Below, in pieces: positions 1,075 to 63,116 of a stretch of DNA of 64,000 nucleotides. The DNA comes from Candidatus Woesebacteria bacterium GW2011_GWC1_42_9 (GTDB lineage: Bacteria > Patescibacteriota > Microgenomatia > UBA8517). Position numbers and translations under genes: made by a program. The DNA lies in assembly GCA_000995185.1 (NCBI GenBank), contig LCET01000004.1, forward strand, positions 2,630-66,629. The letters are read 5' to 3'. The notes under the pieces were generated by a model, which made no database searches, was not told the DNA's origin, and saw only the letters and a program-made list of their open reading frames with translations. Numbering within the stretch: the stretch's first letter is position 1; every line of letters begins with the position of its first letter.

Positions 1075-1105
1075 AGGGTGAACCCTAAAGTTCACCCTTT
1101 TTTTG
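1075..1105 (+). terminator. Rho-independent terminator (AGGGTGAACCCTAAAGTTCACCCT + T7)
   Basis: Perfect 9-bp stem, 6-nt loop, T-run 1099-1105. Confidence 0.7.
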
Positions 1106-1113
1106 TGTATAAT
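1105..1113 (+). promoter_or_regulatory. TG-TATAAT -10 element directly after the T-run; ATG at 1121 is 7 nt downstream (possible leaderless start)
   Basis: gtgTATAAT at 1105-1113; same 'T-run + (G)GTATAAT' architecture recurs elsewhere in window. Confidence 0.5.
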
Positions 1114-1120
1114 AAGCTTA

Positions 1121-4028: not shown

Positions 4029-5519
<1,491 letters not shown>

Positions 5520-34165: not shown

Positions 34166-34171
34166 CTCTAG

Positions 34172-34244
34172 TGGGCCGGGAAGGATTCGAACCTTCGACT
34201 TCCAACTTATAAGATTGGCACTCTAACCGCTGAGTTACCGGCCC
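34172..34244 (-). tRNA. tRNA with anticodon UAU (tRNA-Ile(UAU)-like)
   Basis: RC: GGGCCGGTAACTCAGCGGTTAGAGTGCCAATCTTATAAGTTGGAAGTCGAAGGTTCGAATCCTTCCCGGCCCA; anticodon stem CCAAT/GTTGG, loop CTTATAA. Confidence 0.6.
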
Positions 34245-46357: not shown

Positions 46358-47008
46358 ATGGGGCGCATGAAAGGCGAATCGTTCTCCCCTAGCAAGTATT
46401 TTAGTTTAATTGCAAAATGTTCGCTTGATTTTATAGATTCCCCTAAATACGAAAAAGTAGTAGAAACACTATTAAAGTGTTATGAAAGAGGCGGGATAGT
46501 ATTTACAATGGGATGCGGAGGATCCGCCTCTACGGCGACCCACTTTGCTGCGGATTTAGCAAAGACAACTGCGGCTAACGACAAAATAGGCTTCAAGGCA
46601 ATCTCGCTTGTTGATAATATTCCTCTTGTCAGCGCTTGGACAAACGATAAGGGCTGGAACACTATATTTGCAGGCCAACTTGAGCAGTGGATCACAAAGA
46701 ACGATGTCTTGGTAGGGTTTTCGGTGCACGGAGGGACCAAGCGAGGTGACGAAGCAGGTCCTTGGTCCCAAAACTTAGTCTCCGCGATGGCGCTTGCAAA
46801 GAAAAGAAAGGCAAAAATCATCGGCTTTTCTGGCTTTGACGGTGGAGCGATGGAAGAGATGGCTGACGTTTCAATAATTGTTCCAACAAGCTCTGAGCTT
46901 TATGGCACTCCCATAGTTGAAGCTATGCATATAGTAATACACCACTCGATAATTTTTGATCTTAAAGATAGAATTAAAAGCACTAATGGCAAAAAGACAG
47001 CCGCTTAA
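46358..47008 (+). CDS. SIS-domain sugar-phosphate isomerase (GmhA-like sedoheptulose-7-P isomerase)
   Basis: GIVFTMGCGGSASTATHFAADL...; SIS fold. Confidence 0.65.
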   Translation: MGRMKGESFSPSKYFSLIAKCSLDFIDSPKYEKVVETLLKCYERGGIVFTMGCGGSASTATHFAADLAKTTAANDKIGFKAISLVDNIPLVSAWTNDKGWNTIFAGQLEQWITKNDVLVGFSVHGGTKRGDEAGPWSQNLVSAMALAKKRKAKIIGFSGFDGGAMEEMADVSIIVPTSSELYGTPIVEAMHIVIHHSIIFDLKDRIKSTNGKKTAA

Positions 47009-47786
47009 TACTTCCGGCATATTTTACGATTCAGCCGATCTAGCGGGCTTAAAAAAATGGTTTGATGCTGGCATCCTTGGAGGGGCAACAACTAACCCTC
47101 TCATCTTACAAAGAGAAGGGGTACTAAATATACCAAAGCATATCTTAAAGATGATTAATATAACAGGATCGGGGTTCCCAATATCTATCGAGATCCCAGA
47201 TTCCGATATGCCAGAGAAAGATATGATTAGCCTGGCCTTGAAATACCATAAAATGTATCCGAAAAATGCTGTGATCAAAATCCCCATGGACCCTAGAGAG
47301 CCCCATAAAGCCTTTGAGGTAATGTATAAACTCGGACAGAAAGGGGTAAGGCTAAACGCCACCCTTGGCCTTGGCATGGGGCAATTAGTCGGAGCCGCTG
47401 AGGCCCTCCGCTTAAGTAATGCCGTTGGCGATAATTACATAAGCTTGTTCTGGGGAAGGCGTGAAGAAGCGAGAGATCAGATAGTAAAAGATATGGTGAG
47501 AGATGGTATGAACCTAAATGATGCACTAGAGAAAGTCCCAGATGCGGCCGCATGTGTAGCTATGACCTTAAGATATCTTGAAAACCATAATCTCTCGACA
47601 CGTGTACTTGTAAGTAGCATTAGAAGCACTGATCAAATCGAAAAAGCCTTCGCCGTGGGGGCAGACATTGTCACTATCCCCCCTAATTTAATCAGTCAGT
47701 GGATGTTTAGCCAAAGAGGAATTGAGACTGTAGAAGAATTTAACGAAGCTTATCGCAGCGTAAAGAACAAAATTACCCTGATTTAA
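46986..47786 (+). CDS. Transaldolase/fructose-6-phosphate aldolase family
   Basis: FYDSADL...GATTNP motif; ATG 46986 chosen (track start 46956 overlaps upstream gene). Confidence 0.7.
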   Translation: MAKRQPLNTSGIFYDSADLAGLKKWFDAGILGGATTNPLILQREGVLNIPKHILKMINITGSGFPISIEIPDSDMPEKDMISLALKYHKMYPKNAVIKIPMDPREPHKAFEVMYKLGQKGVRLNATLGLGMGQLVGAAEALRLSNAVGDNYISLFWGRREEARDQIVKDMVRDGMNLNDALEKVPDAAACVAMTLRYLENHNLSTRVLVSSIRSTDQIEKAFAVGADIVTIPPNLISQWMFSQRGIETVEEFNEAYRSVKNKITLI

Positions 47787-47790
47787 GTAT

Positions 47791-48474
47791 TTATTTCTTC
47801 AGATCAACTTTATCCCACCCAGAATAGATTTCCTGGGCGCCGGCGTCTTTTAGTTTTTTGATAACCTCTTGTGTGTAATAAACAGGCATGCCAATAACAT
47901 GAGCTCCAGCGGCGCGGCCTGCTTGGACACCCCGACCTGAATCTTCAAAAACGATTAAGTTTTTAGGAGCAACCCCTAGTCTCCTGGCGCATTCGAGATA
48001 GATATCTGGAGCGGGCTTAGTATGAACGACATCCTCTCCGGTAACAATCATCTTCTGAGGAAAAAATTCTTGCAGGCCAGCCCTTGCAACGTAATCGTAT
48101 GCCAACTTTTTTTTAATAGCGCTACCAATACTCATCGGAACTCCCTCTCTTTTGACTTCCCCGAGAAAATCAAAGATTCCCGCCCGCGTGGGGAGCTTTT
48201 TTTGTCCTTTAAGCCATTCGGCGAATAATTTATCTTTTAATTCATGTATTTCTTGAGGATTTAGCTTTTTATCACCCAATTCATAAAGGTCCTGAGCAAT
48301 AGCTTCATCAGGACCACCAAGGAAGTGGGGAATTTCCTGGATTGCCTCATCAATGGTCAGAGTCAACCCCACCGCCTCGGCACATTTCAAATGAGCGGCA
48401 TGATGACCGTTTCTCTCAAGGTCAACTACTGGACCTTCCAAATCAAAAGCAAGCCCACTTTTTATCTTTGGCAT
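47791..48474 (-). CDS. HAD-superfamily phosphatase/phosphomutase (beta-PGM-like, capped)
   Basis: LAFDLEGPVVDLE (motif I), VFEDSGRGVQAGRAAGAHVIGM (motif IV). Confidence 0.7.
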   Translation of the reverse strand: MPKIKSGLAFDLEGPVVDLERNGHHAAHLKCAEAVGLTLTIDEAIQEIPHFLGGPDEAIAQDLYELGDKKLNPQEIHELKDKLFAEWLKGQKKLPTRAGIFDFLGEVKREGVPMSIGSAIKKKLAYDYVARAGLQEFFPQKMIVTGEDVVHTKPAPDIYLECARRLGVAPKNLIVFEDSGRGVQAGRAAGAHVIGMPVYYTQEVIKKLKDAGAQEIYSGWDKVDLKK

Positions 48475-49460
48475 TAGCTTGAATAGACAATTGTCGTCCC
48501 ATGATAATCAAATTGCATAGGCATATAGACTAAACCCGCCTTCTCTAAAGAAGAAATCAGTATGTGCGACTTTCCAGGACAATAAAAAAGCAAGAAACCT
48601 CCCCTTCCGGCGCCAACCAATGTTCCTCCAATTGCCCCGTTTTTTAATCCCAGATCATACCAGCGATCAATTTGGTCATTAGTTGGCTCGTCCGGTCGAA
48701 CTCTTTTGATTTGCCAATGTTTATCTAATAATTTCCCAAACAGTAAGCCATCTTTTTTCATAAGTGCGTCCTTCATCTCAAAACAAATTTCCTGTGCTGC
48801 AGAAAAATTACCAACCATCTTTTTATCTTTCTTGAGGTTAAGTTCTTTTTGGATAGTTAGAGTTTTCTTGGATGGACGGCGCAAACGCGTATCAAAAAGA
48901 TAAAGATTCTGCTCAACTTCCCGAGCAATGCCTGCATCAAATTGATCAGCGATAATTTTAACTTTACCCCGGCGATTAATCCTAAAAGCAGTCAGCCCTC
49001 CAATGGCAGTGGCATATTCATCCTGCTTTCCGGCGGGAGACTTTAGAATATCGATATTAATATGGCAAGCCTCTTCTGCTAGTTTAGTCCCAGAAACAGG
49101 CTCCTTTTTGAAATTGTGCAGGGCGTTTAAGAGACCTACGCAAAAGGCGCCCGAGGAGCCAAGGCCCGAATGACTCGGTAGATCAATAAAAGAGATAAGT
49201 TCCAAAGGTTGATCTATTTGCAAAAATTTAAGGCAAGCACGGGTTAACTTATCTTTGATTAGATTGATATTCTTTGCCTCTTGAACCTCAAAATACTTAG
49301 TAACAAAATTTCCATGGTATTTCCGATCGTGGACTAAGACATACATATACTTATCGATTGCTGCAGAAATAAAAAAACTTCCGTACTGAGAGTAAAAAGA
49401 GGGCAAATCCGTTCCCCCACCACCAACCTCTATTCGTAGAGGAGTCCTACTAATAATCAT
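48474..49460 (-). CDS. GHMP-family sugar kinase (HddA/heptose-7-P kinase-like)
   Basis: PSHSGLGSSGAFCVGLL GHMP motif. Confidence 0.7.
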   Translation of the reverse strand: MIISRTPLRIEVGGGGTDLPSFYSQYGSFFISAAIDKYMYVLVHDRKYHGNFVTKYFEVQEAKNINLIKDKLTRACLKFLQIDQPLELISFIDLPSHSGLGSSGAFCVGLLNALHNFKKEPVSGTKLAEEACHINIDILKSPAGKQDEYATAIGGLTAFRINRRGKVKIIADQFDAGIAREVEQNLYLFDTRLRRPSKKTLTIQKELNLKKDKKMVGNFSAAQEICFEMKDALMKKDGLLFGKLLDKHWQIKRVRPDEPTNDQIDRWYDLGLKNGAIGGTLVGAGRGGFLLFYCPGKSHILISSLEKAGLVYMPMQFDYHGTTIVYSS

Positions 49461-49525
49461 GTAGTTATGTTATCTCCTTGATTCACCGCTTGCAATAATA
49501 GGCTACTTAGTCAAGAATATGGCAA

Positions 49526-50827
49526 ATGAAAATTGCTGTCGTTGGGTTATGGCATTCAGGTGAAGTTTATTCAGGGTGTTTAGCAGACTTAGGTAACCAC
49601 ATTATCGGAATTGATAAAAACTCCAAGATCGTCAATAATCTAAATCGCGGGATTGCTCCCCTGGCTGAACCCAAACTGGAAGATATTATTAATAGAAACA
49701 TAAAAAAAGGGCGACTAAAATACATAACTGATTTTAGTACTATTTCCTCATGCGATGCAATTTGGATGACAATAGATACCCCGATAGATAAGGCCGCTCA
49801 TGGTAATTTGAGTAAAATATTTACATATATCAAGAAGTCTTTGCCTTTTATTAAAAACGGGGCGATTTTAATCATATCAAGCCAACTTCCTGTTGGAACT
49901 TCTAAAAAAATTATTAAATTTATTAAAGCAAACAGAAAAAATTTTATGTTTGACTATGCATATATACCGGAAAATTTACAATTAGGTAAAGCTGTAGATA
50001 GTTTCATGAAACCTTCAAGAGTTGTTATTGGTACAGATGATATCAAGCGTTTAGAGGTGATAATAAAAATTTTTGAGAAACTTAAAACAAATATACTTCT
50101 CGTAAACATCGCCTCAGCAGAGATGGTAAAACACGCAACGAACGCTTTTCTGGCTACTTCTCTAAGCTTTATCTATGACATTGCCGATGTTTGCGAAAAA
50201 GTTGGCGCCGATGTCACCGAGGTTTCCCAAAGCCTTCGGGCGGATTCGCGAATTGGCGAGAAAGCCTATTTGGATGCTAGCGCCGGGTTTTCAGGAGGGC
50301 ATCTGGATCGTGATTTACAATACTTAAGAAAAATTGCAAAAGATCAAAAACTAAATTTGCCCGTAATTTCCTCAGTACTGAAGAAAAACAAAAAAAGAAG
50401 CGCAATAGTTTTTGAGAGGATTTCCCCACTTTTAAAGACGTTTCAAGGCAAAACTATAACATTTTGGGGTATAACCTACAAGAGCGGCACACCAACATTA
50501 ACTCATTCGTTGCCGTTAAAGTTGGCCAAGGAAGCGGTGAGCCAGGGCTCAAAAATAAATCTTTGTGATCTCTGGGTAAATAAAGATGACATTAAAGGAG
50601 AAATCAATGGAGAATATGGTTATTTTACCGACCCTTATGAATCAGTTAAATCCAGTAATGCTACTATCTGTATTACTCCCTGGCCAGAACTTAAAAACCT
50701 GAACTTCAAAAAAATTGCCAGATCAATGGCCAACCCAAAGATATTTTTTGATGCCCGCAATTATTTTAACGATGAAAAAAATATAATTGAAAGAGCAGGT
50801 ATAAAATATATAGGAGTCGGACGATGA
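49526..50827 (+). CDS. UDP-glucose/GDP-mannose dehydrogenase-family protein with non-canonical active-site region
   Basis: N-terminal Rossmann MKIAVVGL...; position of GGxCxPKD reads GFSGGHLDRD (Cys to His). Confidence 0.55.
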   Translation: MKIAVVGLWHSGEVYSGCLADLGNHIIGIDKNSKIVNNLNRGIAPLAEPKLEDIINRNIKKGRLKYITDFSTISSCDAIWMTIDTPIDKAAHGNLSKIFTYIKKSLPFIKNGAILIISSQLPVGTSKKIIKFIKANRKNFMFDYAYIPENLQLGKAVDSFMKPSRVVIGTDDIKRLEVIIKIFEKLKTNILLVNIASAEMVKHATNAFLATSLSFIYDIADVCEKVGADVTEVSQSLRADSRIGEKAYLDASAGFSGGHLDRDLQYLRKIAKDQKLNLPVISSVLKKNKKRSAIVFERISPLLKTFQGKTITFWGITYKSGTPTLTHSLPLKLAKEAVSQGSKINLCDLWVNKDDIKGEINGEYGYFTDPYESVKSSNATICITPWPELKNLNFKKIARSMANPKIFFDARNYFNDEKNIIERAGIKYIGVGR

Positions 50828-51828
50828 AAAAAATCCATTTCGCTTTAATAGGTGCCGGGAAAATGGGGACAAGATGGGCACTTGTTCTGCCTAAAAGTAT
50901 CAATGCCACTCTCGATGTGATTGTAAGTATGCATCTGGATAGAGCCAAAGGCCTGGCAAGCCAGATTCCTCAATGCAAAGCCACCAACAATATCGGCGAT
51001 GTACTAAATAATAAGGGGATAGATGCAATTGTAATTGCCACTCCACATAGTTCCCTATCCCTAATCACGAGAATGGCATTTAAAGCCGGCAAACACGTAC
51101 TCTGCGAAAAACCGGGGGCAATACATTCTCACGACATTAAAAAAAATATCGCATTGGCGAAGAAAATGGGGCTTACATATATGATTGGTTATAATCATCG
51201 GTTCCATGATGGCTTTATTAAAGCCAGAAGTCTCTACCAGAAAGGAACAATTGGCAAGATTATATTTATCAGAGCCAGGTATGGTTTTTGTGGCAGGCCT
51301 GGCTACGACAAAGAGTGGCGTCTTGATAGATCAATAAATGGTGGCGGACATTTGATAGATCAGGGTGTGCACATGATCGACTTGGCGATGTCCTTCATCG
51401 GTAAAATCCAAAAAGTTCAGGGGTTTACGAGCGACACCTTCTGGAAGAAAGGCACTGAAGATAATGCATTTGTGCTTCTTCAGGGCAAAAACAAAGTTAT
51501 AGCTTCAATTCATACCAGTTTGACCCAGTGGAAAGCACTCCATAATTTTGAAATTTACGGGACTAAAGGCTACCTATCCATAGAAGGGCTTGGGATGAAG
51601 TATGGTGGAGAAGAAAAGTTGATAATTGGTAAGCGTGCGAAGGACTTTACCGGCGAAGTGAAAGAAAAAGTGATTGCTTGTAATAGTGTTGCCGATGATT
51701 CGTTAGCTTTAGAGCTAAAAGAGTTTATTTCTGCGATAAGGCAAGAGAGATCAACAACTCCCTCTCCCAATGATGCTTACGAAACCCTAAAAATTGTAGA
51801 AAAGATATACAGTGACAACAAACTATGA
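50824..51828 (+). CDS. Gfo/Idh/MocA-family NAD(P)-dependent oxidoreductase
   Basis: IHFALIGAGKMG Rossmann + family core. Confidence 0.75.
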   Translation: MKKIHFALIGAGKMGTRWALVLPKSINATLDVIVSMHLDRAKGLASQIPQCKATNNIGDVLNNKGIDAIVIATPHSSLSLITRMAFKAGKHVLCEKPGAIHSHDIKKNIALAKKMGLTYMIGYNHRFHDGFIKARSLYQKGTIGKIIFIRARYGFCGRPGYDKEWRLDRSINGGGHLIDQGVHMIDLAMSFIGKIQKVQGFTSDTFWKKGTEDNAFVLLQGKNKVIASIHTSLTQWKALHNFEIYGTKGYLSIEGLGMKYGGEEKLIIGKRAKDFTGEVKEKVIACNSVADDSLALELKEFISAIRQERSTTPSPNDAYETLKIVEKIYSDNKL

Positions 51829-52940
51829 AGCGAAAGGAAATAGTCTTAGTCACGGGAGGGGCAGGATTTGTCGGAAGCCATTTAGTAGACGCTCTAATAA
51901 GAGAGGGATACAAAACACGTATCTTAGACAACTTGTCTCCCCCCACGCATGATCGTCATATGCCCGACTGGGTTAACAAGAAAGCTGAGTTTGTAAAAGG
52001 GGACGTAAGAAAGAAAAAGGATTGGGTCAATGCGTTAAGCGGAGTTTCCATTGTGTTCCATTTGGCGGCCTATATGGATTATCACTTTGATTTTAGTCGA
52101 TACGCGGACACTAACGTACGGAGTACCACTCTTTTGTATGAGGCTGCAGTTCAAGCTAAACTCCCCCTAAAAAAGATCGTATTTGCCTCTTCTCAATCAG
52201 TTTATGGAGAAGGAAAGTACTTCTGTAAGAAACATGGAATATTTTATGCAGGACCCAGACCTGAAAGCCAATTAAAAAGACACGAGTGGGATGTTAGATG
52301 CCCGAAAGATCACGCTATTGCAAAACTTCTCCCCGAACTTGAAGCCGACGAATTACACCCACAAATACCCTACGGAATAACTAAAGCCGCATCCGAAAAA
52401 TTATGCCTGACTCTGGGAAAAACATATAACATTCCTACGGTGGTCGTTAGACCTTCAATTATACAAGGGTCAAGACAGTCTATTAGGAGTTTCTCAGGAG
52501 CGTTAAAAGACTTTTGTATTAAAGCTCTGGCGGGTACTCCCATAATGATGTACGAGGATGGAGCCGGTGTTCGTGACTTTGTTAATGTCCACGATGTTAT
52601 TGATGCCTACCTTTTAGTTCTAAAAAACAAAAGAGCCGATTATGAAATTTTCAACGTAGGAAGCGGTAAAAATACATCCCTGATGAAGTTAGCTAAAATG
52701 GTTTTTGCTATCGCCAAGTCACAATCCACTCCTACCGCGACGGGTGAATTTCGAATCAACTCTCCCCGAAGTTCAAAGATGAATATCAGCAAACTAAAAA
52801 AACTTGGCTGGAGGCCCCGGCGCACTTTAAACGATAGCATCAAAGAATATGTGGCCTGGGTAAAAGGTTATCCTGAAGCAACTAAGGCTTGGAAAAAAAC
52901 GTACGAGAAGATGATAAGAAGCGACATATTAAGGAAATGA
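51825..52940 (+). CDS. NAD-dependent nucleotide-sugar epimerase/dehydratase (extended SDR)
   Basis: VLVTGGAGFVGSHLVDAL; YGITKAASEKL (YxxxK). Confidence 0.8.
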   Translation: MKRKEIVLVTGGAGFVGSHLVDALIREGYKTRILDNLSPPTHDRHMPDWVNKKAEFVKGDVRKKKDWVNALSGVSIVFHLAAYMDYHFDFSRYADTNVRSTTLLYEAAVQAKLPLKKIVFASSQSVYGEGKYFCKKHGIFYAGPRPESQLKRHEWDVRCPKDHAIAKLLPELEADELHPQIPYGITKAASEKLCLTLGKTYNIPTVVVRPSIIQGSRQSIRSFSGALKDFCIKALAGTPIMMYEDGAGVRDFVNVHDVIDAYLLVLKNKRADYEIFNVGSGKNTSLMKLAKMVFAIAKSQSTPTATGEFRINSPRSSKMNISKLKKLGWRPRRTLNDSIKEYVAWVKGYPEATKAWKKTYEKMIRSDILRK

Positions 52941-53620
52941 AAGCAATAATACTTGCAGCGGGAGAAGGCAGAAGGATGAGGCCGCTCACAAATAAAAGAC
53001 CAAAACCTCTTCTAAAAATAAATGGGAAACCGATCATTGACTATATTCTGGAATCTTTCCCGACTGAAATTAATGAAGTGATAATTTCGGTTAAATACTT
53101 AGCTGGCCAGATAAAAAAACACGTCAACAAAAAATCAGGATTTAAGGTGAAGTATGTTTTAGGATCTGACAAAGGGTCCGCATATAGTTTTATTGCCGCC
53201 AGGAAGCATCTTTACGATGAGCGATTCTTAGTTGTACAAGGGGATGACATTCCTCACCCTGATGATATCGCCAACTGTCTTAAAAAGGATTTGAGTTATC
53301 TTACTTTTGAATCACATAATCCCCAAGCTCACGGGATAGGTTACTTGCGAAAGGACGGTTCTATTAAAAAAATTATTGAAAAGCCTAAAAAAACTACATC
53401 TACTCTTGGAGTTAATGGGGTAATGGTCTTAAATACAAACATCTTCAACTACTCACCTACTTTGATTCGAGGTGAATATTATTTCAGTACCATGATTGGC
53501 GCATTCGTTCGGGACCATAAAGTATTTCCTGTGAAGGCCAGAGATTTTATCGGAGACATTACCACGCCAGGAGATTTAATTAGAGTTGAAAATATCCTTA
53601 AAAAAAGTCATCATCGGTGA
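52937..53620 (+). CDS. Sugar-phosphate nucleotidyltransferase
   Basis: MKAIILAAGEGRRMRPLTNKRPKPLL; ATGA overlap with upstream gene. Confidence 0.8.
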   Translation: MKAIILAAGEGRRMRPLTNKRPKPLLKINGKPIIDYILESFPTEINEVIISVKYLAGQIKKHVNKKSGFKVKYVLGSDKGSAYSFIAARKHLYDERFLVVQGDDIPHPDDIANCLKKDLSYLTFESHNPQAHGIGYLRKDGSIKKIIEKPKKTTSTLGVNGVMVLNTNIFNYSPTLIRGEYYFSTMIGAFVRDHKVFPVKARDFIGDITTPGDLIRVENILKKSHHR

Positions 53621-53621
53621 T

Positions 53622-54518
53622 ATGGCCATAGATTTATCAGTGGTAATTCCCAATAGAAACTCACAATTTGCAACAAAAACAATCCAAGATTTACTTGAGA
53701 AGGCCGCTACAAATATCGAAGTGGTCGTAAATGTCGACGAGAACTGGCCTGACCCCCTGTTAGACGATAAAAGGGTTACATATATTCATCCTGGAGAGCC
53801 CCGCGGGATGAGATGGGGAATAAATTCATGTGTGGCATTAGCCCATGGCAAATACATAATGAAAACAGACGACCACTGCATGTTTGCCCCTGGTTTTGAC
53901 AAAATCCTCATCAAAAACCATCTCAAGGACAACTGGGTGCAAATCCCACGTCGATATTCTCTCGATGCCGAAAATTGGAAAATAAACGATAGTAGGCCTT
54001 ATCGCGATTATTTATATCTTTGCTTCCCAGAAAAAGGCAAAAAACACGATGACGGTATGCACGGCGTTGAATGGTGGGACAGACAAAGAAAGAGGTCCAA
54101 TCCAAAATACGATATCGATGACACTCCGAGCATGCAGGGCTCCTGCTGGTTTATGACTAAAAACCACTTCAATAATTTTTTACACGGCTTAAGCGAAGAG
54201 GGTTATGGACAATTTTCTCAGGAATCCCAAGAAATTGGCAACAAGACGTGGCTTGGCGGGGGTGCGCTAAAAGTAAATAAAAAAACTTGGTATGCCCATC
54301 TGCACAAAGGAAAGCACTACGGGAGGATGTACCATATTAGCCACGAAGAGAATCAGCGGATGATAGATGGAACAAATTGGTCAGCCAAATATTGGATGAA
54401 TAATCGCTGGAAGGACCGCATTCACGATATTGACTGGCTGGTTGATAAGAAGTTTCCCGGGATGCCAACATGGCCAAAAAACTGGAAGAAAATTTGGGCA
54501 TCTTATGGACAGTCTTAG
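53622..54518 (+). CDS. GT-A-like glycosyltransferase, paralog A
   Basis: LSVVIPNRN...; TDDHCMF; C-terminal KTWYAHLHKG...WP.NW. Confidence 0.55.
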   Translation: MAIDLSVVIPNRNSQFATKTIQDLLEKAATNIEVVVNVDENWPDPLLDDKRVTYIHPGEPRGMRWGINSCVALAHGKYIMKTDDHCMFAPGFDKILIKNHLKDNWVQIPRRYSLDAENWKINDSRPYRDYLYLCFPEKGKKHDDGMHGVEWWDRQRKRSNPKYDIDDTPSMQGSCWFMTKNHFNNFLHGLSEEGYGQFSQESQEIGNKTWLGGGALKVNKKTWYAHLHKGKHYGRMYHISHEENQRMIDGTNWSAKYWMNNRWKDRIHDIDWLVDKKFPGMPTWPKNWKKIWASYGQS

Positions 54519-54522
54519 ATAG

Positions 54523-55434
54523 ATGGCAAAAGTATCAATCATTGTCCCAAGTTGTAATGAAGCCTTTGAAGTTTCACCTGGCGTTACTGTACTCCAAAGA
54601 ACAGTGCAGGAAATTTACGAGAAGGCCACAGGCGACTTTGAGGTTATTGTTGGCTTTAATGGCCCGCCATATCAAAAGTTCCCAGAATATCCAAATTTCA
54701 AGACTGTAAATTTACCTGAGAACGTTGGCATAAAAATGATGGTCAATATCTTGGCGATTATGACAAAAGGAAAATATATTTACAAAACTGACGCACACTG
54801 CATGTTTGGAAAAGGCTTTGATGAAATTTTGCAAGCGGACATGGAAGACAACTGGGTCGTAACTCCCCGATTCTATGTATTAAACGCCAAAGAATGGAAG
54901 TGGCAGGATAATAGACATTACGACTATTTCTATTTATGTTGTCCTTTTACTGATCCCAGAGGGTTTCGATTCAAAGCCGGCGGACATTGGCCGCAAAGGA
55001 CCGCAGAGCGGGAGGGAAACCATAAATACGACATTGATGAAACCCCGCAATTTCATGGGTCGGGCTGGTTTGTGGAAAAAGATTTCTTTCTCAACAAAAT
55101 TGGCGGCTTCCCTTGTCTGGACCCCATGGGACATGCTCAGGAACCGCCGAATATTGGACTTAAGACCTGGCTCGGGCCTTGGGAAGGAAAAGTCATGGTC
55201 AATAAAAAAACTTGGTATGCGCATATGCACCAGGATGGATCAGCCAAAGGTTATCGATACACAAGACAGCAAGAGCGCACCTCATATGATGTATGGGCAA
55301 GGTATTGGATGGGTGACAAGTGGGAAGAAAGGATACATAATATCGATTGGTTCATAGAAAAGTTTATGCCCATGCCCACCTGGCCAGAAAACTGGCGTGA
55401 ACTACTAGAAAATTACCGAAAGAGCAATAAATAG
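54523..55434 (+). CDS. GT-A-like glycosyltransferase, paralog B
   Basis: Collinear with paralog A (TDAHCMF, KTWYAHMHQ, TWPENW). Confidence 0.55.
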   Translation: MAKVSIIVPSCNEAFEVSPGVTVLQRTVQEIYEKATGDFEVIVGFNGPPYQKFPEYPNFKTVNLPENVGIKMMVNILAIMTKGKYIYKTDAHCMFGKGFDEILQADMEDNWVVTPRFYVLNAKEWKWQDNRHYDYFYLCCPFTDPRGFRFKAGGHWPQRTAEREGNHKYDIDETPQFHGSGWFVEKDFFLNKIGGFPCLDPMGHAQEPPNIGLKTWLGPWEGKVMVNKKTWYAHMHQDGSAKGYRYTRQQERTSYDVWARYWMGDKWEERIHNIDWFIEKFMPMPTWPENWRELLENYRKSNK

Positions 55435-55944
55435 ATGGCAACAAAGATGTATGTATCCGGCAAATACGGAACCCACCTCGCACCCCTCATTAAGGCAGTG
55501 TCCAAAACTACCGGCGATATCCTAGAGCTTGGAATGGGAGTATTCAGTACCCCATACTTACACTATCAATGTGTCCTTTCCAATAGAAAATTAGTTTCCT
55601 TCGAGAACTATCCAGATTGGGCACAATTTTTCATCAACTATGGATATAAGCACCCAAATCACGAGATTATTGTTGTCGATCATTATGATAAGGCGGACAT
55701 TGAAAAAGAATGGGACGTAGTTTTAGTGGATCATTCTCCATCCGAAAGAAGGATCGTCGATATCAAGCGCCTGGCCAATTTAGCCAAATACATTATCATT
55801 CATGACTCAAATGGAAGATATGAGAAAATTTACCACTATTCAGAAATATATCCTCTATTTAAGTACCGGACCATCTGGGACAAAGATAGTAATCACGCAA
55901 CTGTGCTCAGTAACTTCATCAATCTCGACAATTTCTGGGAATGA
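55435..55944 (+). CDS. Short TylF/Methyltransf_24-like protein (possibly degenerate)
   Basis: ILELGMGVFST motif-I-like. Confidence 0.4.
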   Translation: MATKMYVSGKYGTHLAPLIKAVSKTTGDILELGMGVFSTPYLHYQCVLSNRKLVSFENYPDWAQFFINYGYKHPNHEIIVVDHYDKADIEKEWDVVLVDHSPSERRIVDIKRLANLAKYIIIHDSNGRYEKIYHYSEIYPLFKYRTIWDKDSNHATVLSNFINLDNFWE

Positions 55945-56615
55945 ACAGCACCATAGAATTAATTGGCAAAAAATTTGGCGTCGATGTTTCAACTAAGTCC
56001 CAAGTAATATTGGGGAAAATCAACCGAACAATTCTGACTCAAACTTTCGCTGAATTGGGATTTAATAAGGGAGCCGAAATCGGAGTAGCCGAGGGTCTCT
56101 ATTCTAAAGTTCTCCTCGATAATATTCCGGGTCTCAAATTATACGGCGTTGACATTTGGAGTAATTATCCTGGCTACGCGGAGTTAAAAGACCCCAAACA
56201 GCTTTACATTGAGGCATTAAAAAGATTAAAACCTTACAACTGCAAACTCATCAGAAAATTTAGCATGGATGCTGTCCTTGAGTTCGCCGACAATTCCTTG
56301 GACTTTGTTTTCATAGACGGCGGGCATGATTTTAAAAATGTTGCCTGCGATATTTGCGAGTGGTCAAAAAAAGTACGTGCCGGGGGCATTGTCTTTGGAC
56401 ACGATTATAAATATCACCAGGCCTATGTGCAAAAAACGCCAGGCCATTACACCAAATATAGACATGCCATTGAAGTAAAAATTGTTGCAGATGCATTCCG
56501 CGATGCAAAAAAAATCCGCCCGTGGTTTGAACTATATCCAGAAATTCCTGACCCTACTTTCGGACGGGATAATCCCTGCTGGATGTTTGTAAGACAAGAA
56601 GGAGACAAGTTATGA
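55941..56615 (+). CDS. TylF/MycF-like class I SAM-dependent O-methyltransferase, paralog 1
   Basis: GAEIGVAEGLYS; FVFIDGGHDF; GGIVFGHDY. Confidence 0.65.
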   Translation: MNSTIELIGKKFGVDVSTKSQVILGKINRTILTQTFAELGFNKGAEIGVAEGLYSKVLLDNIPGLKLYGVDIWSNYPGYAELKDPKQLYIEALKRLKPYNCKLIRKFSMDAVLEFADNSLDFVFIDGGHDFKNVACDICEWSKKVRAGGIVFGHDYKYHQAYVQKTPGHYTKYRHAIEVKIVADAFRDAKKIRPWFELYPEIPDPTFGRDNPCWMFVRQEGDKL

Positions 56616-57424
56616 ACAAAAAGAAGGTAAAAGAGTACTGGGACCAGCGGCCCTGCAACATTCGGCATTCACCTAAACCAGTAGGGACTGTTGAATATTT
56701 CAACGAAGTGGAGGATCGCCGATATTTCGTCGAACCGCATATTCTCCAATTCGCCAAATTTCCTCACTGGAAGGGAAAGCGGGTCTTGGAAATTGGCTGT
56801 GGAATAGGGACAGATATGATACGTTTCGCTCGTACCGGTGCAAAGGTTACCGCCGTCGAGTTCTCCCAAAAGTCTTTAAAAATCGCCAAACAGCGCGCCA
56901 AAGTTTTTAAATTGCAAAATAAAATAAAGTTTTATCAAGGTGACGCCGAGCATCTCACTGATTTTGTCCCTATTGCCCCTTATGATCTCGTTTACTCCTT
57001 TGGCGTCATCCACCATACACCACACCCAGAAAAAGTGATCGAACAAATACGCAATTATGTGCGGCCCGGCACCGTCATCAAACTGATGGTCTATTACCGA
57101 TATTCCTGGAGGGTGTTCTGGATTCTTTTGACCTTTGGCCGGGGACAATTTTGGCGGCTTAACGAACTGGTTGCACGCCATTCCGAAGCGCAGACTGGCT
57201 GCCCCATCACTCACCTTTATTCCCGGCGACAAATACGCAGATTACTTCATGGCTATAAAATTATAGAGATGCATGTTGACCATATTTTTCCGTACCGTAT
57301 CGCCGACTACACTAATTACCATTACCGCAAAGTGTGGTATTTTAGATGGATGCCTGGGCCCATATTTGCGTGGTTGAAACAAAATTTCGGCTGGCATTTA
57401 TTAGTCACTGCCGAGGTATACTAG
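56612..57424 (+). CDS. Class I SAM-dependent methyltransferase (Methyltransf_11/25-like)
   Basis: VLEIGCGIGTD motif I. Confidence 0.7.
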   Translation: MNKKKVKEYWDQRPCNIRHSPKPVGTVEYFNEVEDRRYFVEPHILQFAKFPHWKGKRVLEIGCGIGTDMIRFARTGAKVTAVEFSQKSLKIAKQRAKVFKLQNKIKFYQGDAEHLTDFVPIAPYDLVYSFGVIHHTPHPEKVIEQIRNYVRPGTVIKLMVYYRYSWRVFWILLTFGRGQFWRLNELVARHSEAQTGCPITHLYSRRQIRRLLHGYKIIEMHVDHIFPYRIADYTNYHYRKVWYFRWMPGPIFAWLKQNFGWHLLVTAEVY

Positions 57425-57434
57425 CTAAAGAAAA

Positions 57435-57863
57435 ATGGTGGCTCAAGGATATACAATCATTAATAATATCGACTTTGAACCTGGTGAAGTGGTTATTGAA
57501 ATTGGATCAGAAAGAGGAGAAGGTTCTACTGGATATTTGGACAACTTCGACTGGACATACGAAGGTACTGAGAATATACCACGAGTAAGGCGTTGTGTAG
57601 CGAAGTACAAAGAACTGGGGGTTGATTTGAATAACACAGATAGCCAGAAAGCCCATTTGCAACAATCTGTCCTCGTGTCTGATTATGTTGCTAAAAATGG
57701 CGTTATTCTCTTTGATGATACCTGGCAACCAAGTGAGGGTGTATTTAGCGGGAAGGGTGGCACAGCAGTACCTTGGTTACTAAGCCACGGTTTTGAGATT
57801 TACAAAACGTACAATACACCGAATTTAGAGTGGAACTTCGTATCGGTTATAAAAACATCATGA
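57435..57863 (+). CDS. Short TylF-like domain protein
   Basis: VVIEIGSERGEGST...ILFDD. Confidence 0.4.
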   Translation: MVAQGYTIINNIDFEPGEVVIEIGSERGEGSTGYLDNFDWTYEGTENIPRVRRCVAKYKELGVDLNNTDSQKAHLQQSVLVSDYVAKNGVILFDDTWQPSEGVFSGKGGTAVPWLLSHGFEIYKTYNTPNLEWNFVSVIKTS

Positions 57864-58666
57864 TATACGCCGTCTACCGCTGTTTGTATGGTGAAGATTT
57901 TATCCAAGAATCGATAAGATCAATTAGGGATTATGTCGATAAGATTTTTATATTCTGGGATGACAAGCCTTGGGGAGACATAGAATCATGTATTTATAAA
58001 GGGGAAGAAGTTAAGTTTCCGAAGAAATTCGACAACATTCTTGACAAAATTCAAGAGTTAAACGACCCTAAAGTCGTCTTGATACACGATCATGTTGAGA
58101 ACAACCTTGGACAATTTACCCATCTCATTAATGACATTATTCTTAAGAATTGGCAAAAACCTGACCTGTTTATAGTGATCGAAGTAGACCATGTTTTAAA
58201 ACAATCAGAGATGAAGAGAGCTTTGGGACATATGTCTTCTGGACAAATCAGGCACGCGACCACCAAACCATTAGAATTATGGAAAACATATGAATACAGA
58301 ATACCCGAGAGAAACAGATTAGCAACTGTATTCTGGAATATGGACGGACTAGAACGCTTACCAGATACCGGCAGACAGGCCAACGCTGGACAAACAGCGG
58401 TCTTGCCGGTTTATACTCATAACTTTGGCTTTTGCTTTAATCCTCAGACTATGTATTGGAAACACTTAACAGCGCTGGGTTACGCTAAAAAAATAGGTGA
58501 CCGACTCCCAAATGAGGATTGGTATGATAAATGGTTAAATTGGTCAATCAATGACGATAATAAAGATTTAGAAATATCTAAAGGACGTGAACATACAATT
58601 CCCTATGCCTATCGATATGATGTTAATGAATTGCCTGAGGCTATCAAGGATAAATATAAACTATGA
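57860..58666 (+). CDS. Hypothetical glycosyltransferase-like protein (ATGA-coupled to upstream gene)
   Basis: ATG 57860 overlaps stop of 57435-57863; no clear family. Confidence 0.4.
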   Translation: MIYAVYRCLYGEDFIQESIRSIRDYVDKIFIFWDDKPWGDIESCIYKGEEVKFPKKFDNILDKIQELNDPKVVLIHDHVENNLGQFTHLINDIILKNWQKPDLFIVIEVDHVLKQSEMKRALGHMSSGQIRHATTKPLELWKTYEYRIPERNRLATVFWNMDGLERLPDTGRQANAGQTAVLPVYTHNFGFCFNPQTMYWKHLTALGYAKKIGDRLPNEDWYDKWLNWSINDDNKDLEISKGREHTIPYAYRYDVNELPEAIKDKYKL

Positions 58667-59760
58667 GCAGACACGAAAGATTAACCCAAATATATTCGAC
58701 ATGGGGAGACAAACTCCTCCAACACACCGATGTTCTAAACTCGATTCAAGAGAAAAGACAATTCCAGCCAATTACAATTCAGTTAGCGCCTGTCGAAGCT
58801 TGCGAGAGCGACTGTCCGTTTTGTTCAGTTGCAGCAAGACCAATCAAAAGTTATTTACCTTTTGATCAATTAAGCAAATGTTTGCAAGATTTTAGATCAC
58901 TAGGGGCAAAAAGCCTCGAGATTACTGGCGGTGGCAATCCACTTTTATATCGAGATCGAGAAAACGGAAAAAACATTAATGATGTTGTCCAACTAGCGGC
59001 TAAATTGGGCTTAGATATCGGCATAATCACCAACGGCCACGATTTAAAGGTTCTCAATCCAGGGTTATACGATCAAATCAACTGGATTAGAATTAGTCTC
59101 ATCAAGCTTGACGAAGGAGTAGCCCCAGAAGCTTATGACTTTCACGGCTTTCCTGAGTCCAAACTAGGTTTTAGTTATATAATTTATGAAACGGGCGGTG
59201 TTCCCGATCCCCTTTCCAAAACTGGACGAACATATACAGGTACCACTGCAGAAACAATCCAAAAGATGGCAAGTTTAGTTGAAATGCATCCCGATGTAAA
59301 ATTTGTGAGAATCGCCGGCAACTGCTTAATCAAGGGCAATAACGCAGTTATTCGAGATAAATATAAAGATGTCATTGATGCTGTTGATGAACACGGTAAG
59401 TTCTTCATTAAAGATATTGGCGACAATGATTCTCCGTTCAATGATGGCTGCTATATTGGTATGATCAGGCCTTATGTCGCCCCCTCTCCGACGGGTGACG
59501 GTTACATGGTTTATACCTGCACCAGTCATGTTCTTAATACCCGAACCTATGATCCGGCTTATGCGTTATGTAAAATTGAAGATATAATACCTGCTTGGCA
59601 AAGAATGAATGAAAAATTTGCCACCGATGGCCATCCATATGAGGTAAAAGGCAATGGCGGACATAATTGGTGCCATTCATGCAAATTTTGTTATTACCAC
59701 AATAATAACCAATTATTACACTCTGTGTCTAACGAGATGCCAGACAAGAACTTTCCGTGA
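58663..59760 (+). CDS. Radical SAM enzyme with C-terminal Cys cluster
   Basis: CESDCPFC (CxxxCxxC), GGGNPLL SAM motif, C-terminal CHSCKFC. Confidence 0.7.
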   Translation: MSRHERLTQIYSTWGDKLLQHTDVLNSIQEKRQFQPITIQLAPVEACESDCPFCSVAARPIKSYLPFDQLSKCLQDFRSLGAKSLEITGGGNPLLYRDRENGKNINDVVQLAAKLGLDIGIITNGHDLKVLNPGLYDQINWIRISLIKLDEGVAPEAYDFHGFPESKLGFSYIIYETGGVPDPLSKTGRTYTGTTAETIQKMASLVEMHPDVKFVRIAGNCLIKGNNAVIRDKYKDVIDAVDEHGKFFIKDIGDNDSPFNDGCYIGMIRPYVAPSPTGDGYMVYTCTSHVLNTRTYDPAYALCKIEDIIPAWQRMNEKFATDGHPYEVKGNGGHNWCHSCKFCYYHNNNQLLHSVSNEMPDKNFP

Positions 59761-59775
59761 AAGAAAAAACTTTCC

Positions 59776-60387
59776 ATGAAATACGGCAAAGACTATTTTA
59801 AGAATCTAAATTACACCGACTACCTAGAAAGGCGCGATAAGTATCTCAATCACGCCAAAGAACTTCATGAATTTCTAGGTAGATTAGGACTTATCTCTGA
59901 AAAAAGTTCAATAATGGATTATGGTTGTGCAGTTGGCTTTTTAATGGAGGGGTTTAAGGAGCTTGGGTATCAGAATGTATATGGATACGATATCTCTAAA
60001 TGGGCTGTTGCCCAGGCTAAAGCTAAGGGTTTAAAGATTCTTAATCATATTGATCACCAGTCCTTTGGTGTTATTATTTGTCTTGATGTTTTTGAACACA
60101 TGACTGATCGTGAAATCCATAAGGTTTTTAATCAATATGAATCCAATGTTATGATAGTTAGAATTCCTTGCTCTAGCGATGGGAAACGGTTTATGCTTAA
60201 TATCTCAAACAATGACCCAACCCATAGCAATCTCAAAACTAAGAATGGTTGGCTTAAGTTGTTAAAAAAATTGGGATACACAACCATCCTGCCGTTAAAT
60301 TTACTTACAATTTACGATACTCCCGGAGTGATGTGTGCGCTGGGTTTAAAACCTAAAGCATACTTGAATCACAAATCATCTCTTTGA
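59776..60387 (+). CDS. Class I SAM-dependent methyltransferase
   Basis: IMDYGCAVGF motif I; VIICLDVFEHM. Confidence 0.65.
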   Translation: MKYGKDYFKNLNYTDYLERRDKYLNHAKELHEFLGRLGLISEKSSIMDYGCAVGFLMEGFKELGYQNVYGYDISKWAVAQAKAKGLKILNHIDHQSFGVIICLDVFEHMTDREIHKVFNQYESNVMIVRIPCSSDGKRFMLNISNNDPTHSNLKTKNGWLKLLKKLGYTTILPLNLLTIYDTPGVMCALGLKPKAYLNHKSSL

Positions 60388-60391
60388 AAAT

Positions 60392-62257: not shown

Positions 62258-62358
62258 TCCCGGCTATGGCAGTCATTTGCCAGTCTTAGTAAAAGACAAA
62301 AACCATACACATCGTTACCAAGAAATTTTATAGATCCTCTCTATGTTCTATCGCAAAT

Positions 62359-63078: not shown

Positions 63079-63116
63079 TTAATCCAAATAAATCATAATC
63101 AAGTATTAAAATACTC

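Follow-up and report, generated by a model that had tools for sequence, protein, structure and literature searches.

A glycan-locus gene module in a groundwater Woesebacteria genome resembles the GDP-octose/lincosamide part of lincomycin and celesticetin biosynthesis

The window analysed here is a 64,000-nucleotide stretch of contig LCET01000004.1 from a groundwater Woesebacteria bacterium of the candidate phyla radiation (CPR). At 46358-53620 it encodes, back to back, a SIS isomerase, a transaldolase (TAL), a HAD phosphatase, a GHMP kinase, and four proteins designated L, Z, M, and NT, followed by glycan genes:

46358..47008, + strand: SIS, SIS-domain ketose-phosphate/aldose-phosphate isomerase of an LmbN-like subfamily (Pfam SIS_2, PF13580)
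46986..47786, + strand: TAL, short-type class I transaldolase of 266 aa (PF00923, 103 bits)
47791..48474, - strand: HAD-IA phosphatase, capped, beta-PGM/YqaB-like (HAD_2/Hydrolase)
48474..49460, - strand: GHMP-family anomeric sugar-phosphate kinase, proposed HddA/LmbP role (GHMP_kinases_N/C)
49526..50827, + strand: L, UDP-glucose/GDP-mannose-dehydrogenase (UGDH) fold, LmbL-like subfamily (three UDPG_MGDP_dh domains)
50824..51828, + strand: Z, Gfo/Idh/MocA NAD(P) oxidoreductase, LmbZ/CcbZ-like (Pfam GFO_IDH_MocA and C-terminal domains)
51825..52940, + strand: M, extended SDR of epimerase/reductase type (Epimerase/GDP_Man_Dehyd)
52937..53620, + strand: NT, sugar-1-phosphate nucleotidyltransferase of 227 aa (NTP_transferase; start from gene callers)
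53622..63749, + strand: glycan genes downstream of the module (Pfam)

As read from their spacing, the module genes are tightly coupled, with overlaps of 23 nt between SIS and TAL, 1 nt between kinase and HAD, and 4 nt each for L/Z, Z/M, and M/NT; TAL starts at ATG 46986 rather than TTG 46956. An earlier note on this DNA had described five clustered enzymes and three downstream genes as a GDP-heptose pathway. All eight were located in this interval, and profile matches to each gene confirmed the families. The general logic also held, from ketose-phosphate to aldose-phosphate, 1-phosphorylation, removal of the terminal phosphate, nucleotide activation, and tailoring. The specific GmhA-HddA-GmhB-HddC assignment did not, as all four genes fall below equivalog cut-offs: SIS scores 97.8 bits against 209 for gmhA (TIGR00441), its top NCBIfam match, the kinase 135.7 against 600 for HddA (NF049969), likewise its top match, and NT 54 against 300 for HddC, while the HAD had no GmhB match among curated profiles or solved structures. 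SIS was thus rejected as a GmhA equivalog. The eight genes form one module that would make a nucleotide-activated seven- or eight-carbon sugar. We infer its substrates and final product, and the carbon number purely so; because the one relative of the module that has been studied produces lincomycin's eight-carbon sugar, the product could be an octose instead of the heptose that the note proposed.

For comparison with the antibiotic pathway, our "Lmb-like" references were proteins of syntenic clusters in Rhodococcus and on a metagenomic contig, which stand in for the Streptomyces lincolnensis and S. caelestis sequences. The cluster in Rhodococcus sp. 06-235-1A has the gene order S-O-P ... Z-carrier protein-N-M-L, as in the lmb operon, together with PmbA_TldD, Erm-like RrnaAD, PIG-L, luciferase-like, and AMP-binding genes.

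The window SIS carries the motifs GCGGSASTATHF and FSVHGG. It belongs to a subfamily with the signature GGSASTA.HF / FSVHGG, to which the isomerase of lincosamide-type antibiotic clusters also belongs. By phmmer it scores 179 bits against the SIS of a biosynthetic cluster with 69% GC (L014) and 133 bits against the Rhodococcus LmbN-like SIS, compared with 70 bits against the best solved GmhA. Among characterised families GmhA, not GutQ/KpsF, is nearest; the subfamily nevertheless splits from canonical GmhA in a neighbour-joining tree and differs from it by Glu to Asp and Gln to Glu changes at what we take to be GmhA catalytic or metal ligands. In one related locus (L016), the TAL-linked SIS/kinase pair adjoins a GmhA-like/HddA-like pair with far higher model scores, yet below the cut-offs; in another (L021), such a pair shares the locus with a GmhA above its cut-off. 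This distinct subfamily beside canonical or near-canonical heptose genes speaks against the heptose assignment and argues for a different substrate.

TAL is proposed to make the ketose-phosphate substrate of SIS. Aligned with the Thermoplasma transaldolase, it has the Asp/Glu/Lys of the catalytic site, the Asn-Thr pair, and the Arg that binds phosphate; it also has Leu in place of Phe132 and an insertion of about 35 aa. SIS-TAL adjacency is conserved across phyla, and TAL-HAD and TAL-HAD-SIS fusion proteins exist, which bind TAL to the module pathway. NCBI names the window protein 'CcbR'. By sequence comparison it is only marginally closer to the TAL of the antibiotic-type cluster, with 85 bits by phmmer and 98 by BLAST, than to ordinary short TAL/FSA proteins, with 59 by phmmer and up to 89 by tblastn; the TAL phylogeny is star-like, and module TALs do not form a single clade.

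The HAD is proposed to strip the terminal phosphate from a sugar bisphosphate, the role of GmhB and LmbK. As the earlier note had recognised, it is a capped, beta-PGM-like protein rather than GmhB: among solved structures it is closest to TM_1254, CbbY, and beta-PGM. It does not group firmly with beta-phosphoglucomutases, reaching 94.5 of the 153 bits required by the PGMB-YQAB-SF model. Its motif I, FDLEGP, has Glu at the catalytic Asp+2 position, which counts against an octose pathway. In a CPR relative (L011) and most other loci, a GmhB/HisB-type HAD occupies the slot between TAL and kinase. The window kinase matched solved heptokinases, a putative Campylobacter jejuni HddA (4n3o, 8e-34) and Burkholderia pseudomallei WcbL (5e-28), in preference to mevalonate kinases and galactokinases (1e-5 to 1e-8). 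It is equally near HddA (121 bits) and the Rhodococcus LmbP-like kinase (104 bits), and scores 243 bits, with 41% identity, against the TAL-linked kinase of L016.

L has lost the UGDH nucleophile. Where UGDH reads GYGGSCFPKD, L reads GFSGGHLDRD, with His for Cys and Arg for Lys, and its N-terminus has GLWHSG in place of the Rossmann motif GxGYVG. The catalytic Cys is missing in all L orthologues. L proteins of the Rhodococcus and L014 clusters carry GLWHLG or GTWHLG and AFSGATLRRD, so that the GLWHxG and FSG..L.RD signatures are common to both; the window protein has His at the nucleophile position, whereas the cluster proteins and most relatives have Thr. Together they constitute a single clade that excludes Cys-containing UGDHs. 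The second oxidation by UGDH needs a cysteine nucleophile, and given these substitutions, thioester two-step oxidation to a uronic acid is not expected of L.

Z shares 33% identity with the Gfo protein in the lincosamide-type cluster of Rhodococcus (E 1e-51, 150 phmmer bits), compared with 90 bits to the best solved Gfo structure and 52-56 bits to 3q2k/3q2i, presumably WlbA-type entries. Together with the Cys-less L, this nearest relative undercuts the suggestion of Campylobacter-like heptose tailoring. Orthology of the window SDR, NT, and HAD to LmbM, LmbO, and LmbK was not found in phmmer comparisons with the Lmb-like cluster proteins. M was rejected as an LmbM orthologue at 46-49 bits; its best solved relatives are GalE-type 4-epimerases, and it scores 293-316 bits against SDRs of Acidobacteriota and Chloroflexota modules. 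NT lies nearest to the archaeal GlmU N-terminal domain, at 140.8 bits, and to the RmlA-long and AglF families, and it scores 22 bits against the Rhodococcus LmbO-like NT.

Downstream lie genes for two GT2 glycosyltransferases and a conserved 169-aa ORF, together with several encoding SAM methyltransferases and one encoding a radical-SAM-like protein; a GT2-UGDH fusion there has retained the catalytic Cys (UGDH domain at 60392-62257). GT2, 169-aa, and Methyltransf_24 genes travel with the module in five related loci (L007, L009, L011, L012, and L013), and the downstream genes probably use and decorate its product.

The module is widespread among uncultivated microbes: the NT-kinase-SIS-phosphatase-TAL core also occurs in Chloroflexota, DPANN archaea, CPR, Acidobacteriota, and one cultured cyanobacterium. 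Since the same gene set recurs around TAL homologues at 55-73% identity, the clustering is not due to chance. Across other phyla, we counted neighbours within 6 kb of a close SIS homologue in 28 genome loci where this homologue had no less than 5 kb of sequence to either side. A GHMP kinase and an SDR were each present in 25, an NT in 22, and a GmhB-type HAD in 21; TAL was found in 20 of the loci, Z in 12, and L in 10. TAL was absent within this radius in 8 of the 28 complete loci, which counts against an octose pathway. The SIS subfamily is accompanied by L and Z in archaea, Acidobacteriota, Chloroflexota, one cyanobacterium, and the actinobacterial clusters. The module of the cyanobacterium Halotia wernerae, which should already make sedoheptulose-7-phosphate (S7P), retains its own TAL. 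The CPR relative L011 has a DegT aminotransferase besides its GmhB-type phosphatase.

We take LmbL to have the UGDH fold and LmbZ the Gfo fold, from the literature and from the L014 and L015 (Rhodococcus) clusters. In the early lincosamide route, LmbR transaldolase, LmbN isomerase, LmbP kinase, LmbK phosphatase, and LmbO nucleotidyltransferase act before GDP-octose is converted to GDP-lincosamide by LmbM epimerase, LmbL dehydrogenase, LmbZ/CcbZ oxidoreductase, and LmbS/CcbS aminotransferase (PMC12945683, PMC4351081). LmbR uses fructose-6-phosphate (F6P) or S7P as donor and ribose-5-phosphate as acceptor (PMC5854111). Of the nine families of enzymes in this route, the window encodes eight and L011 all nine. 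In gene content and partly in sequence, the module is homologous to this sub-pathway, and the whole gene set suits the GDP-octose route better than the heptose assignment.

Our best reading, to which we give a probability of about 0.55, is a lincosamide-like NDP-octose pathway that supplies the adjoining glycosyltransferases. Weighing against it are the TAL comparisons and phylogeny, the kinase's equal nearness to HddA, and the different subfamilies of the SDR, NT, and HAD. The dedicated TAL would transfer the C3 dihydroxyacetone unit of F6P (or S7P) to ribose-5-phosphate, giving an octulose 8-phosphate that the LmbN-like SIS would convert to octose 8-phosphate. The GHMP kinase would phosphorylate C1, the HAD would take off the 8-phosphate, and NT would form the NDP-octose. 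Z and the Cys-less L could then oxidise and dehydrate the side chain, like LmbL/CcbZ (6,8-dehydration). As the window has no aminotransferase, the SDR would epimerise or reduce the keto intermediate to an 8-deoxy-type octose, which the neighbouring GT2 enzymes may move to a surface glycan and the methyltransferases may decorate.

The main rival, conceivable if rather unlikely, is that the product is instead an NDP-heptose, with TAL supplying S7P from F6P and erythrose-4-phosphate in a cell with a reduced pentose-phosphate pathway. SIS would then be a divergent GmhA and the kinase HddA, with the HAD replacing GmhB, NT replacing HddC, and L, Z, and M tailoring the NDP-heptose, for example to a deoxy-heptose. 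The best named matches of SIS and kinase (GmhA and HddA/WcbL) and the GmhB-type phosphatase of most related loci agree with this, and the reduced central metabolism of CPR and DPANN makes a dedicated S7P supply plausible. Heptoses are common glycan components, we know of no aldo-octoses in glycans, and the phylogeny does not show TAL to be LmbR-like. Such a pathway leaves TAL with a supply role only, however, and a private TAL is kept by a cyanobacterium and by Acidobacteriota, which should have no shortage of S7P. All four core genes are well under the curated cut-offs, the SIS subfamily differs from GmhA, including the two ligand changes, and it would be redundant beside the GmhA/HddA-like genes of L016 and L021. 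The isomerase, Z, and L are of the kinds found in lincosamide-type octose clusters; to our knowledge, the known Campylobacter heptose-tailoring enzymes are neither UGDH-like nor of Gfo type.

We consider it highly improbable that two unrelated pathways lie side by side, or that TAL is merely a housekeeping enzyme. L would then be an ordinary UDP-glucose (or UDP-GlcNAc) 6-dehydrogenase acting with Z, M, and NT towards a uronic-acid-derived sugar in the manner of WbpA/WbpB, with SIS, TAL, kinase, and HAD a separate unit. L carries the annotation UDP-glucose 6-dehydrogenase, clears the cut-off of the generic NDP-sugar dehydrogenase model (296 against 190 bits), and is nearer overall to real UGDH structures (236 bits) than to cluster L proteins (117-151 bits). 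The gene groups also sit on different transcription units, and L is absent from most of the related loci, as is Z. Against this, L and all its orthologues lack the cysteine nucleophile, a genuine Cys-containing UGDH domain lies elsewhere in the fusion protein, and Z is far closer to the lincosamide-type Z than to WlbA-type entries. L and Z accompany the SIS subfamily across archaeal, bacterial, and actinobacterial-cluster loci, and the overlapping SIS/TAL pair is kept across phyla, unlike a housekeeping gene.

With the UGDH family, L shares the three-domain fold, the central-domain Lys/Asn, and the Asp after the nucleophile position. The known heptose pathway shares with the window its reaction logic and its SIS and GHMP superfamilies, and the best solved SIS relatives are GmhA structures; the window phosphatase and NT are of other types, its tailoring enzymes differ from the Campylobacter SDR/cupin enzymes, and we know of no transaldolase in characterised heptose loci. 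Compared with the lincosamide system, the module lies in a CPR glycan locus with GT2 and methyltransferase genes rather than in an antibiotic cluster. The window has no NRPS-like, mycothiol, or resistance gene and no aminotransferase, which the related CPR locus has; its phosphatase is HAD-IA rather than GmhB/HisB-type, and its NT and SDR belong to other subfamilies than LmbO and LmbM. Both systems nevertheless bring together TAL, SIS, GHMP kinase, HAD, NT, UGDH-fold, Gfo/Idh/MocA, and SDR families in one locus, and the lincosamide-type clusters of Rhodococcus and the 69% GC contig have the same SIS, Z, and L subfamilies as the window.

The run of eight genes at 46358-53620 in this groundwater Candidatus Woesebacteria is tightly packed, and the families assigned to it in the earlier note were borne out.

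Genes of the eight-gene module, in window positions
46358-47008, + strand: SIS isomerase, here SIS (Pfam/NCBIfam and gene calls)
46986-47786, + strand: transaldolase, here TAL (true ATG start, 266 aa)
47791-48474, - strand: HAD-IA hydrolase, here HAD
48474-49460, - strand: GHMP kinase
49526-50827, + strand: L, UDP-glucose-dehydrogenase-like (UDPG_MGDP_dh family)
50824-51828, + strand: Z, Gfo/Idh/MocA oxidoreductase
51825-52940, + strand: M, extended SDR
52937-53620, + strand: nucleotidyltransferase, here NT (NTP_transferase)

The TAL gene starts within the SIS gene (23-nt overlap), the HAD and kinase genes share 1 nt, the divergent kinase and L genes are separated by 65 bp, and L/Z, Z/M and M/NT each overlap by 4 nt. 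Following the module on its 3' side are genes for two glycosyltransferases of family GT2, for several methyltransferases, for a radical-SAM-like protein and for a fusion of GT2 with UGDH; no aminotransferase was found by Pfam between 43 and 64 kb of the window. Amid the methyltransferases of this glycan locus, 58663-59760 encodes a protein of 365 aa that bears a radical-SAM signature of CxxxCxxC type, scoring 27 bits against a Pfam cut-off of 29.5. A 169-aa ORF at 55435-55944 is without a Pfam match; unassigned ORFs of 169-170 aa lie beside the module GT2 genes in two related CPR loci (L009 and L011) and one is called in a third (L007), and it may be an unrecognised piece of glycan machinery.

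Elsewhere, the window carries a 16S rRNA gene (4030-5519, - strand) and the start of a 23S gene (1-204, - strand), with ~3.8 kb between them. Located in this spacer are a tRNA-Ala, a tRNA-Ile on the plus strand and, also on the plus strand, an ORF of 752 aa (1103-3361) that has TrwB/TraG/HerA domains and resembles coupling proteins of type IV secretion; another ORF of this kind is at 34322-36637. Also observed were an archaeal/eukaryotic-type ATP-dependent DNA ligase (20694-22406) and a tRNA-Ile with anticodon TAT (34171-34244).

The earlier note read the module as the GDP-heptose route GmhA-HddA-GmhB-HddC. Every core gene scored far under the equivalog cut-offs for that route: SIS reached 97.8 bits on the GmhA model TIGR00441 (cut-off 209.45), the kinase 135.7 bits on the HddA model NF049969 (cut-off 600) and NT 54.1 bits on the HddC model NF049965 (cut-off 300), while HAD gave no match to GmhB among NCBIfam profiles and solved structures. 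The competing family assignments that the note had named did not appear. The best solved relatives of the kinase were HddA/WcbL heptokinases (8e-34 to 5e-28) rather than galacto- or mevalonate kinases (1e-5 to 1e-8), and SIS was nearest to GmhA structures (1e-18; DiaA, 2e-7) rather than grouping with GutQ/KpsF. HAD was of the capped beta-PGM/YqaB type (HAD-IA), as the note had it, and not a HisB-type uncapped GmhB; TM_1254, CbbY and beta-PGM were closest, with no cut-off reached that would place it firmly with beta-PGM. With scores below the cut-offs and none of these assignments observed, the heptose reading is allowed, not established.

The same families can be compared with the lincosamide octose route, which comprises the transaldolase LmbR, C8 isomerase LmbN, kinase LmbP, phosphatase LmbK and guanylyltransferase LmbO, followed by tailoring by the dehydrogenase LmbL, epimerase LmbM, oxidoreductase LmbZ/CcbZ and aminotransferase LmbS (PMC12945683, PMC4351081). 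GDP-octose is converted to GDP-lincosamide by LmbM, LmbL, CcbZ and CcbS, and the operon order is lmbVTQRSOPZNML (PMC12945683, PMC4351081). In the LmbR reaction a C3 unit passes from F6P or S7P to ribose-5-P, yielding octulose 8-phosphate (PMC5854111), and a carrier protein is fused to LmbN or CcbZ (PMC4351081).

Proteins of two loci, L014 and L015, stand in for the Lmb proteins in all our comparisons, and phmmer bits against these stand-ins and against PDB entries are on the same scale; the PDB matches to window proteins included no entry for LmbL, LmbM, LmbZ or LmbR. L014, a contig of 69% GC, encodes, in this order, TAL-HAD, SIS, SDR, UGDH-like, AMP-binding, PIG-L, methyltransferase, luciferase-like and PKS proteins, and may be an undescribed lincosamide-related cluster. 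A homologue search with its L protein returned actinobacterial relatives, S. lincolnensis being absent, and led to L015 from Rhodococcus sp. 06-235-1A, which reads DegT-NT-GHMP ... Gfo-carrier protein-SIS-SDR-UGDH-like, then HAD, PmbA_TldD, an Erm-like RrnaAD, PIG-L and a luciferase-like gene. In order and inventory, including the carrier protein, L015 matches lmb. Its contig (SRR5865864_83) holds homologues of LmbS, O, P, C, Z, carrier protein, N, M, L, K, IH/Q, E and Y, together with an Erm-like methyltransferase and a P450; no description of this Rhodococcus lincosamide-type cluster was found.

SIS gave 179 bits to its L014 counterpart and 133 to that of L015, compared to 70 for the best GmhA, and was 36-45% identical to the SIS proteins of these two clusters, which here represent LmbN of S. 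lincolnensis. The motifs GGSASTA.HF and FSVHGG and an insertion are common to the window and cluster proteins, and in a neighbour-joining tree the window SIS fell in a clade apart from GmhA, with differing motifs. A true GmhA from a related CPR locus (L021, Nealsonbacteria) scored 225 bits on the GmhA model against the cut-off of 209. In the SIS subfamily, Glu is replaced by Asp in AAEL/AADL and Gln by Glu before the conserved His, positions that we take to be GmhA catalytic residues and metal ligands. Against these homologues SIS is thus specifically Lmb-like, of LmbN type. Members of this subfamily are routinely named 'sedoheptulose 7-phosphate isomerase', an annotation error that can be corrected whatever the carbon number of the product.

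The L protein departs from UDP-glucose dehydrogenases at the active site. Its GFSGGHLDRD aligns with the UGDH motif GYGGSCFPKD (3gg2, 4a7p, 2y0e), with Cys replaced by His and Lys by Arg, so that the catalytic cysteine of G-x-G-G-S-C-x-x-K-D is missing, and this Cys-less motif is kept in orthologues. The Rossmann motif is GLWHSG in place of GxGYVG. Corresponding proteins from L014, L015 and Allokutzneria carry GLWHLG (GTWHLG in L015) and AFSGATLRRD, and in L proteins from modules of archaea, Acidobacteriota and Chloroflexota the motifs are GLWHLG and GF[AGS]GGTL.RD. The Cys-less proteins formed one clade in a neighbour-joining tree without bootstrap, in which the outgroups were two Cys-containing UGDHs only, a protein of locus L041 and the window GT2-UGDH fusion, both outside the clade. 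By phmmer, L gave 117-151 bits to the Lmb-like stand-ins compared to 236 for a real UGDH (3gg2). From motifs and clade together, the label 'UDP-glucose 6-dehydrogenase' is very probably wrong for L; Cys-less L proteins routinely bear this name, an error independent of carbon number. The 621-aa fusion at 60392-62257 joins a GT2-like N-terminal part to a UGDH-like domain which, unlike L, has the catalytic Cys (GDGGGCHPRD).

Z scored 150 bits to the cluster Z protein (33% identity), compared to 90 for the best solved Gfo and 52-56 for 3q2k/3q2i, which are presumably WlbA-type, and is specifically Lmb-like. The adjacent, overlapping L and Z genes together form a pair of LmbL and LmbZ/CcbZ type, judged against the stand-in cluster proteins.

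Orthology to the lincosamide proteins was not found for HAD, NT and M. The kinase gave 104 bits to the LmbP-like stand-in and 121 to HddA (4n3o), leaving its predicted affinity ambiguous, and HAD did not match the LmbK-like phosphatase of the stand-in clusters. NT gave 22 bits to the LmbO-like stand-in; among NCBIfam profiles it scored 140.8 on the archaeal GlmU N-terminal domain and 105 on RmlA-long, profile scores that are not directly comparable with phmmer bits. M scored 46-49 bits to LmbM-like SDRs against 124 to the GalE type and is not an LmbM-type epimerase, and no LmbS-type aminotransferase was found between 43 and 64 kb. At the level of sequence, M, NT and HAD look like non-orthologous fillers of the LmbM, LmbO and LmbK roles.

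HAD is predicted to be the terminal phosphatase, as had been provisionally proposed. In L011, as in most of the other loci, a GmhB/HisB-type enzyme takes its place, and the filling of this slot by non-orthologous enzymes backs the assignment. HAD phosphatases and mutases normally carry an Asp+2 general acid/base; motif I of HAD, FDLEGP, has Glu instead, as does its orthologue at L007:10743-11486. ORFs of 164-169 aa lie between TAL and kinase in three further CPR loci (L009:10723-11217, L012:10801-11298 and L013:10717-11226), and another ORF of 281-285 aa occupies the phosphatase slot in two of them (L012:11591-12436 and L013:11223-12080). The four tested, of 164, 165, 169 and 281-285 aa, had no NCBIfam match, and one of these slot ORFs may be a novel phosphatase.

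TAL is dedicated to the cluster, overlapping the SIS gene and being kept across relatives. NCBI names it 'CcbR', and it gave 85 bits to the Lmb-like stand-in compared to 59 for a Thermoplasma TAL. The TAL tree was star-like and thus uninformative on affinity to LmbR: module-linked TALs fell in several groups, and the window TAL did not go specifically with the cluster TAL. No Lmb or Ccb names occurred among the clusters of 20 distant TAL representatives, and the tblastn matches on plasmids were confined to generic fsa genes, none above 30% identity. At L014:4258-5490 and in proteins P0192, P0324 and P0332, a short TAL is naturally fused to a GmhB-type phosphatase, one of these fusions being TAL-HAD-SIS. 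The cluster of P0192, a distant TAL representative, was considered as a TAL-SIS fusion, which Pfam ruled out; P0192, whose contig is L014, is a TAL-HAD fusion and one cluster member a TAL-HAD-SIS triple fusion.

CPR contigs with TAL homologues 55-73% identical to the window protein carry the same module. L007 reads SIS-TAL / HAD-GHMP / L-adh_short-Z-M-NT; in L009, L012 and L013 the genes are interleaved with GT2 and Methyltransf_24 genes and the short ORF stands in place of HAD; and L011, on a 684-kb contig, adds a DegT aminotransferase, so that all nine Lmb families are present. A genome scan with a SIS-subfamily alignment and the patterns G[CN]GGSASTA and [TS]HF[AVT]ADL[AC]K matched at least 600 stretches, at least 521 of them confirmed. 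The best 80 of these loci came from Chloroflexota/Dehalococcoidia, DPANN, Bathyarchaeota, several CPR phyla, Acidobacteriota, Planctomycetota, Verrucomicrobiota and the cultured cyanobacterium Halotia wernerae UHCC 0503, with no Streptomyces among them. In 28 loci whose SIS is close and whose flanks are complete, the genes within 6 kb included a GHMP kinase 25 times, an SDR 25 times, NT 22 times, a GmhB-type HAD 21 times, TAL 20 times, Z 12 times and L 10 times, usually in the order (SDR)-NT-kinase-SIS-HAD-TAL. TAL was absent from all 15 loci whose SIS is more distant. Halotia has methyltransferase-kinase-class IV aminotransferase-Z-L-SDR-TAL opposite SIS-NT. The window genes very likely belong to a widespread, uncharacterised TAL-linked module for an NDP-higher sugar, and it is highly improbable that two unrelated pathways simply lie side by side here. 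Common ancestry of the module with the lincosamide octose genes for SIS, L and Z is probable.

We favour an octose-type sugar as the predicted product, at a probability of roughly 0.55. Against it, the kinase is not specifically LmbP-like, the TAL tree is uninformative and, to our knowledge, aldo-octoses are without precedent in glycans. In the Dehalococcoidia locus L016, however, the TAL-linked SIS and kinase (81 bits on GmhA, 160 on HddA) sit beside a second SIS (190 on gmhA, 206 on PRK13936) and a second, more canonical HddA-like kinase (264), higher yet under the cut-offs, and L021 likewise combines a subfamily SIS with the GmhA that passes. Such pairs would duplicate each other if they shared a substrate, which argues for a TAL-linked substrate other than sedoheptulose-7-P. 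The loci of Halotia and Acidobacteriota (L032) also keep their own TAL; S7P is expected to be abundant in cyanobacteria and Acidobacteriota, and this private supply points the same way. The SIS subfamily also changes the presumed GmhA catalytic and metal-ligand positions. We regard a heptose product as unlikely. More tentatively, and at slightly less than even odds, the octose-type product would be an NDP eight-carbon aldose, lincosamine-like (8-deoxy/6-keto) and amine-less here, destined for a cell-surface glycan.

We know of no aldo-octose nucleotide sugars outside lincosamide antibiotic biosynthesis, and our literature search found no paper tying octose or lincosamine to CPR or glycan loci. 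If the octose reading is true, the presence of the TAL-linked module in CPR, DPANN, Bathyarchaeota, Chloroflexota, Acidobacteriota and a cyanobacterium would make octoses widespread but overlooked glycan sugars, and the surface glycans of many uncultivated lineages would hold a sugar class outside standard composition analyses. The lincosamide antibiotic pathway would then be a recruitment of an older glycan pathway, hinting at the origin of the lincomycin sugar.

The window module would bring sugar chemistry of lincosamide type into the setting of surface glycans. Relatives include an aminotransferase of DegT type in L011 and of class IV in Halotia. Compared to the lincosamide amino-octose pathway, the window copy has no transaminase, and enzymes of other types stand in for the phosphatase, SDR and NT, whereas the TAL, SIS, GHMP kinase, HAD, NT, UGDH-like, Gfo/Idh/MocA and SDR families are common to both.
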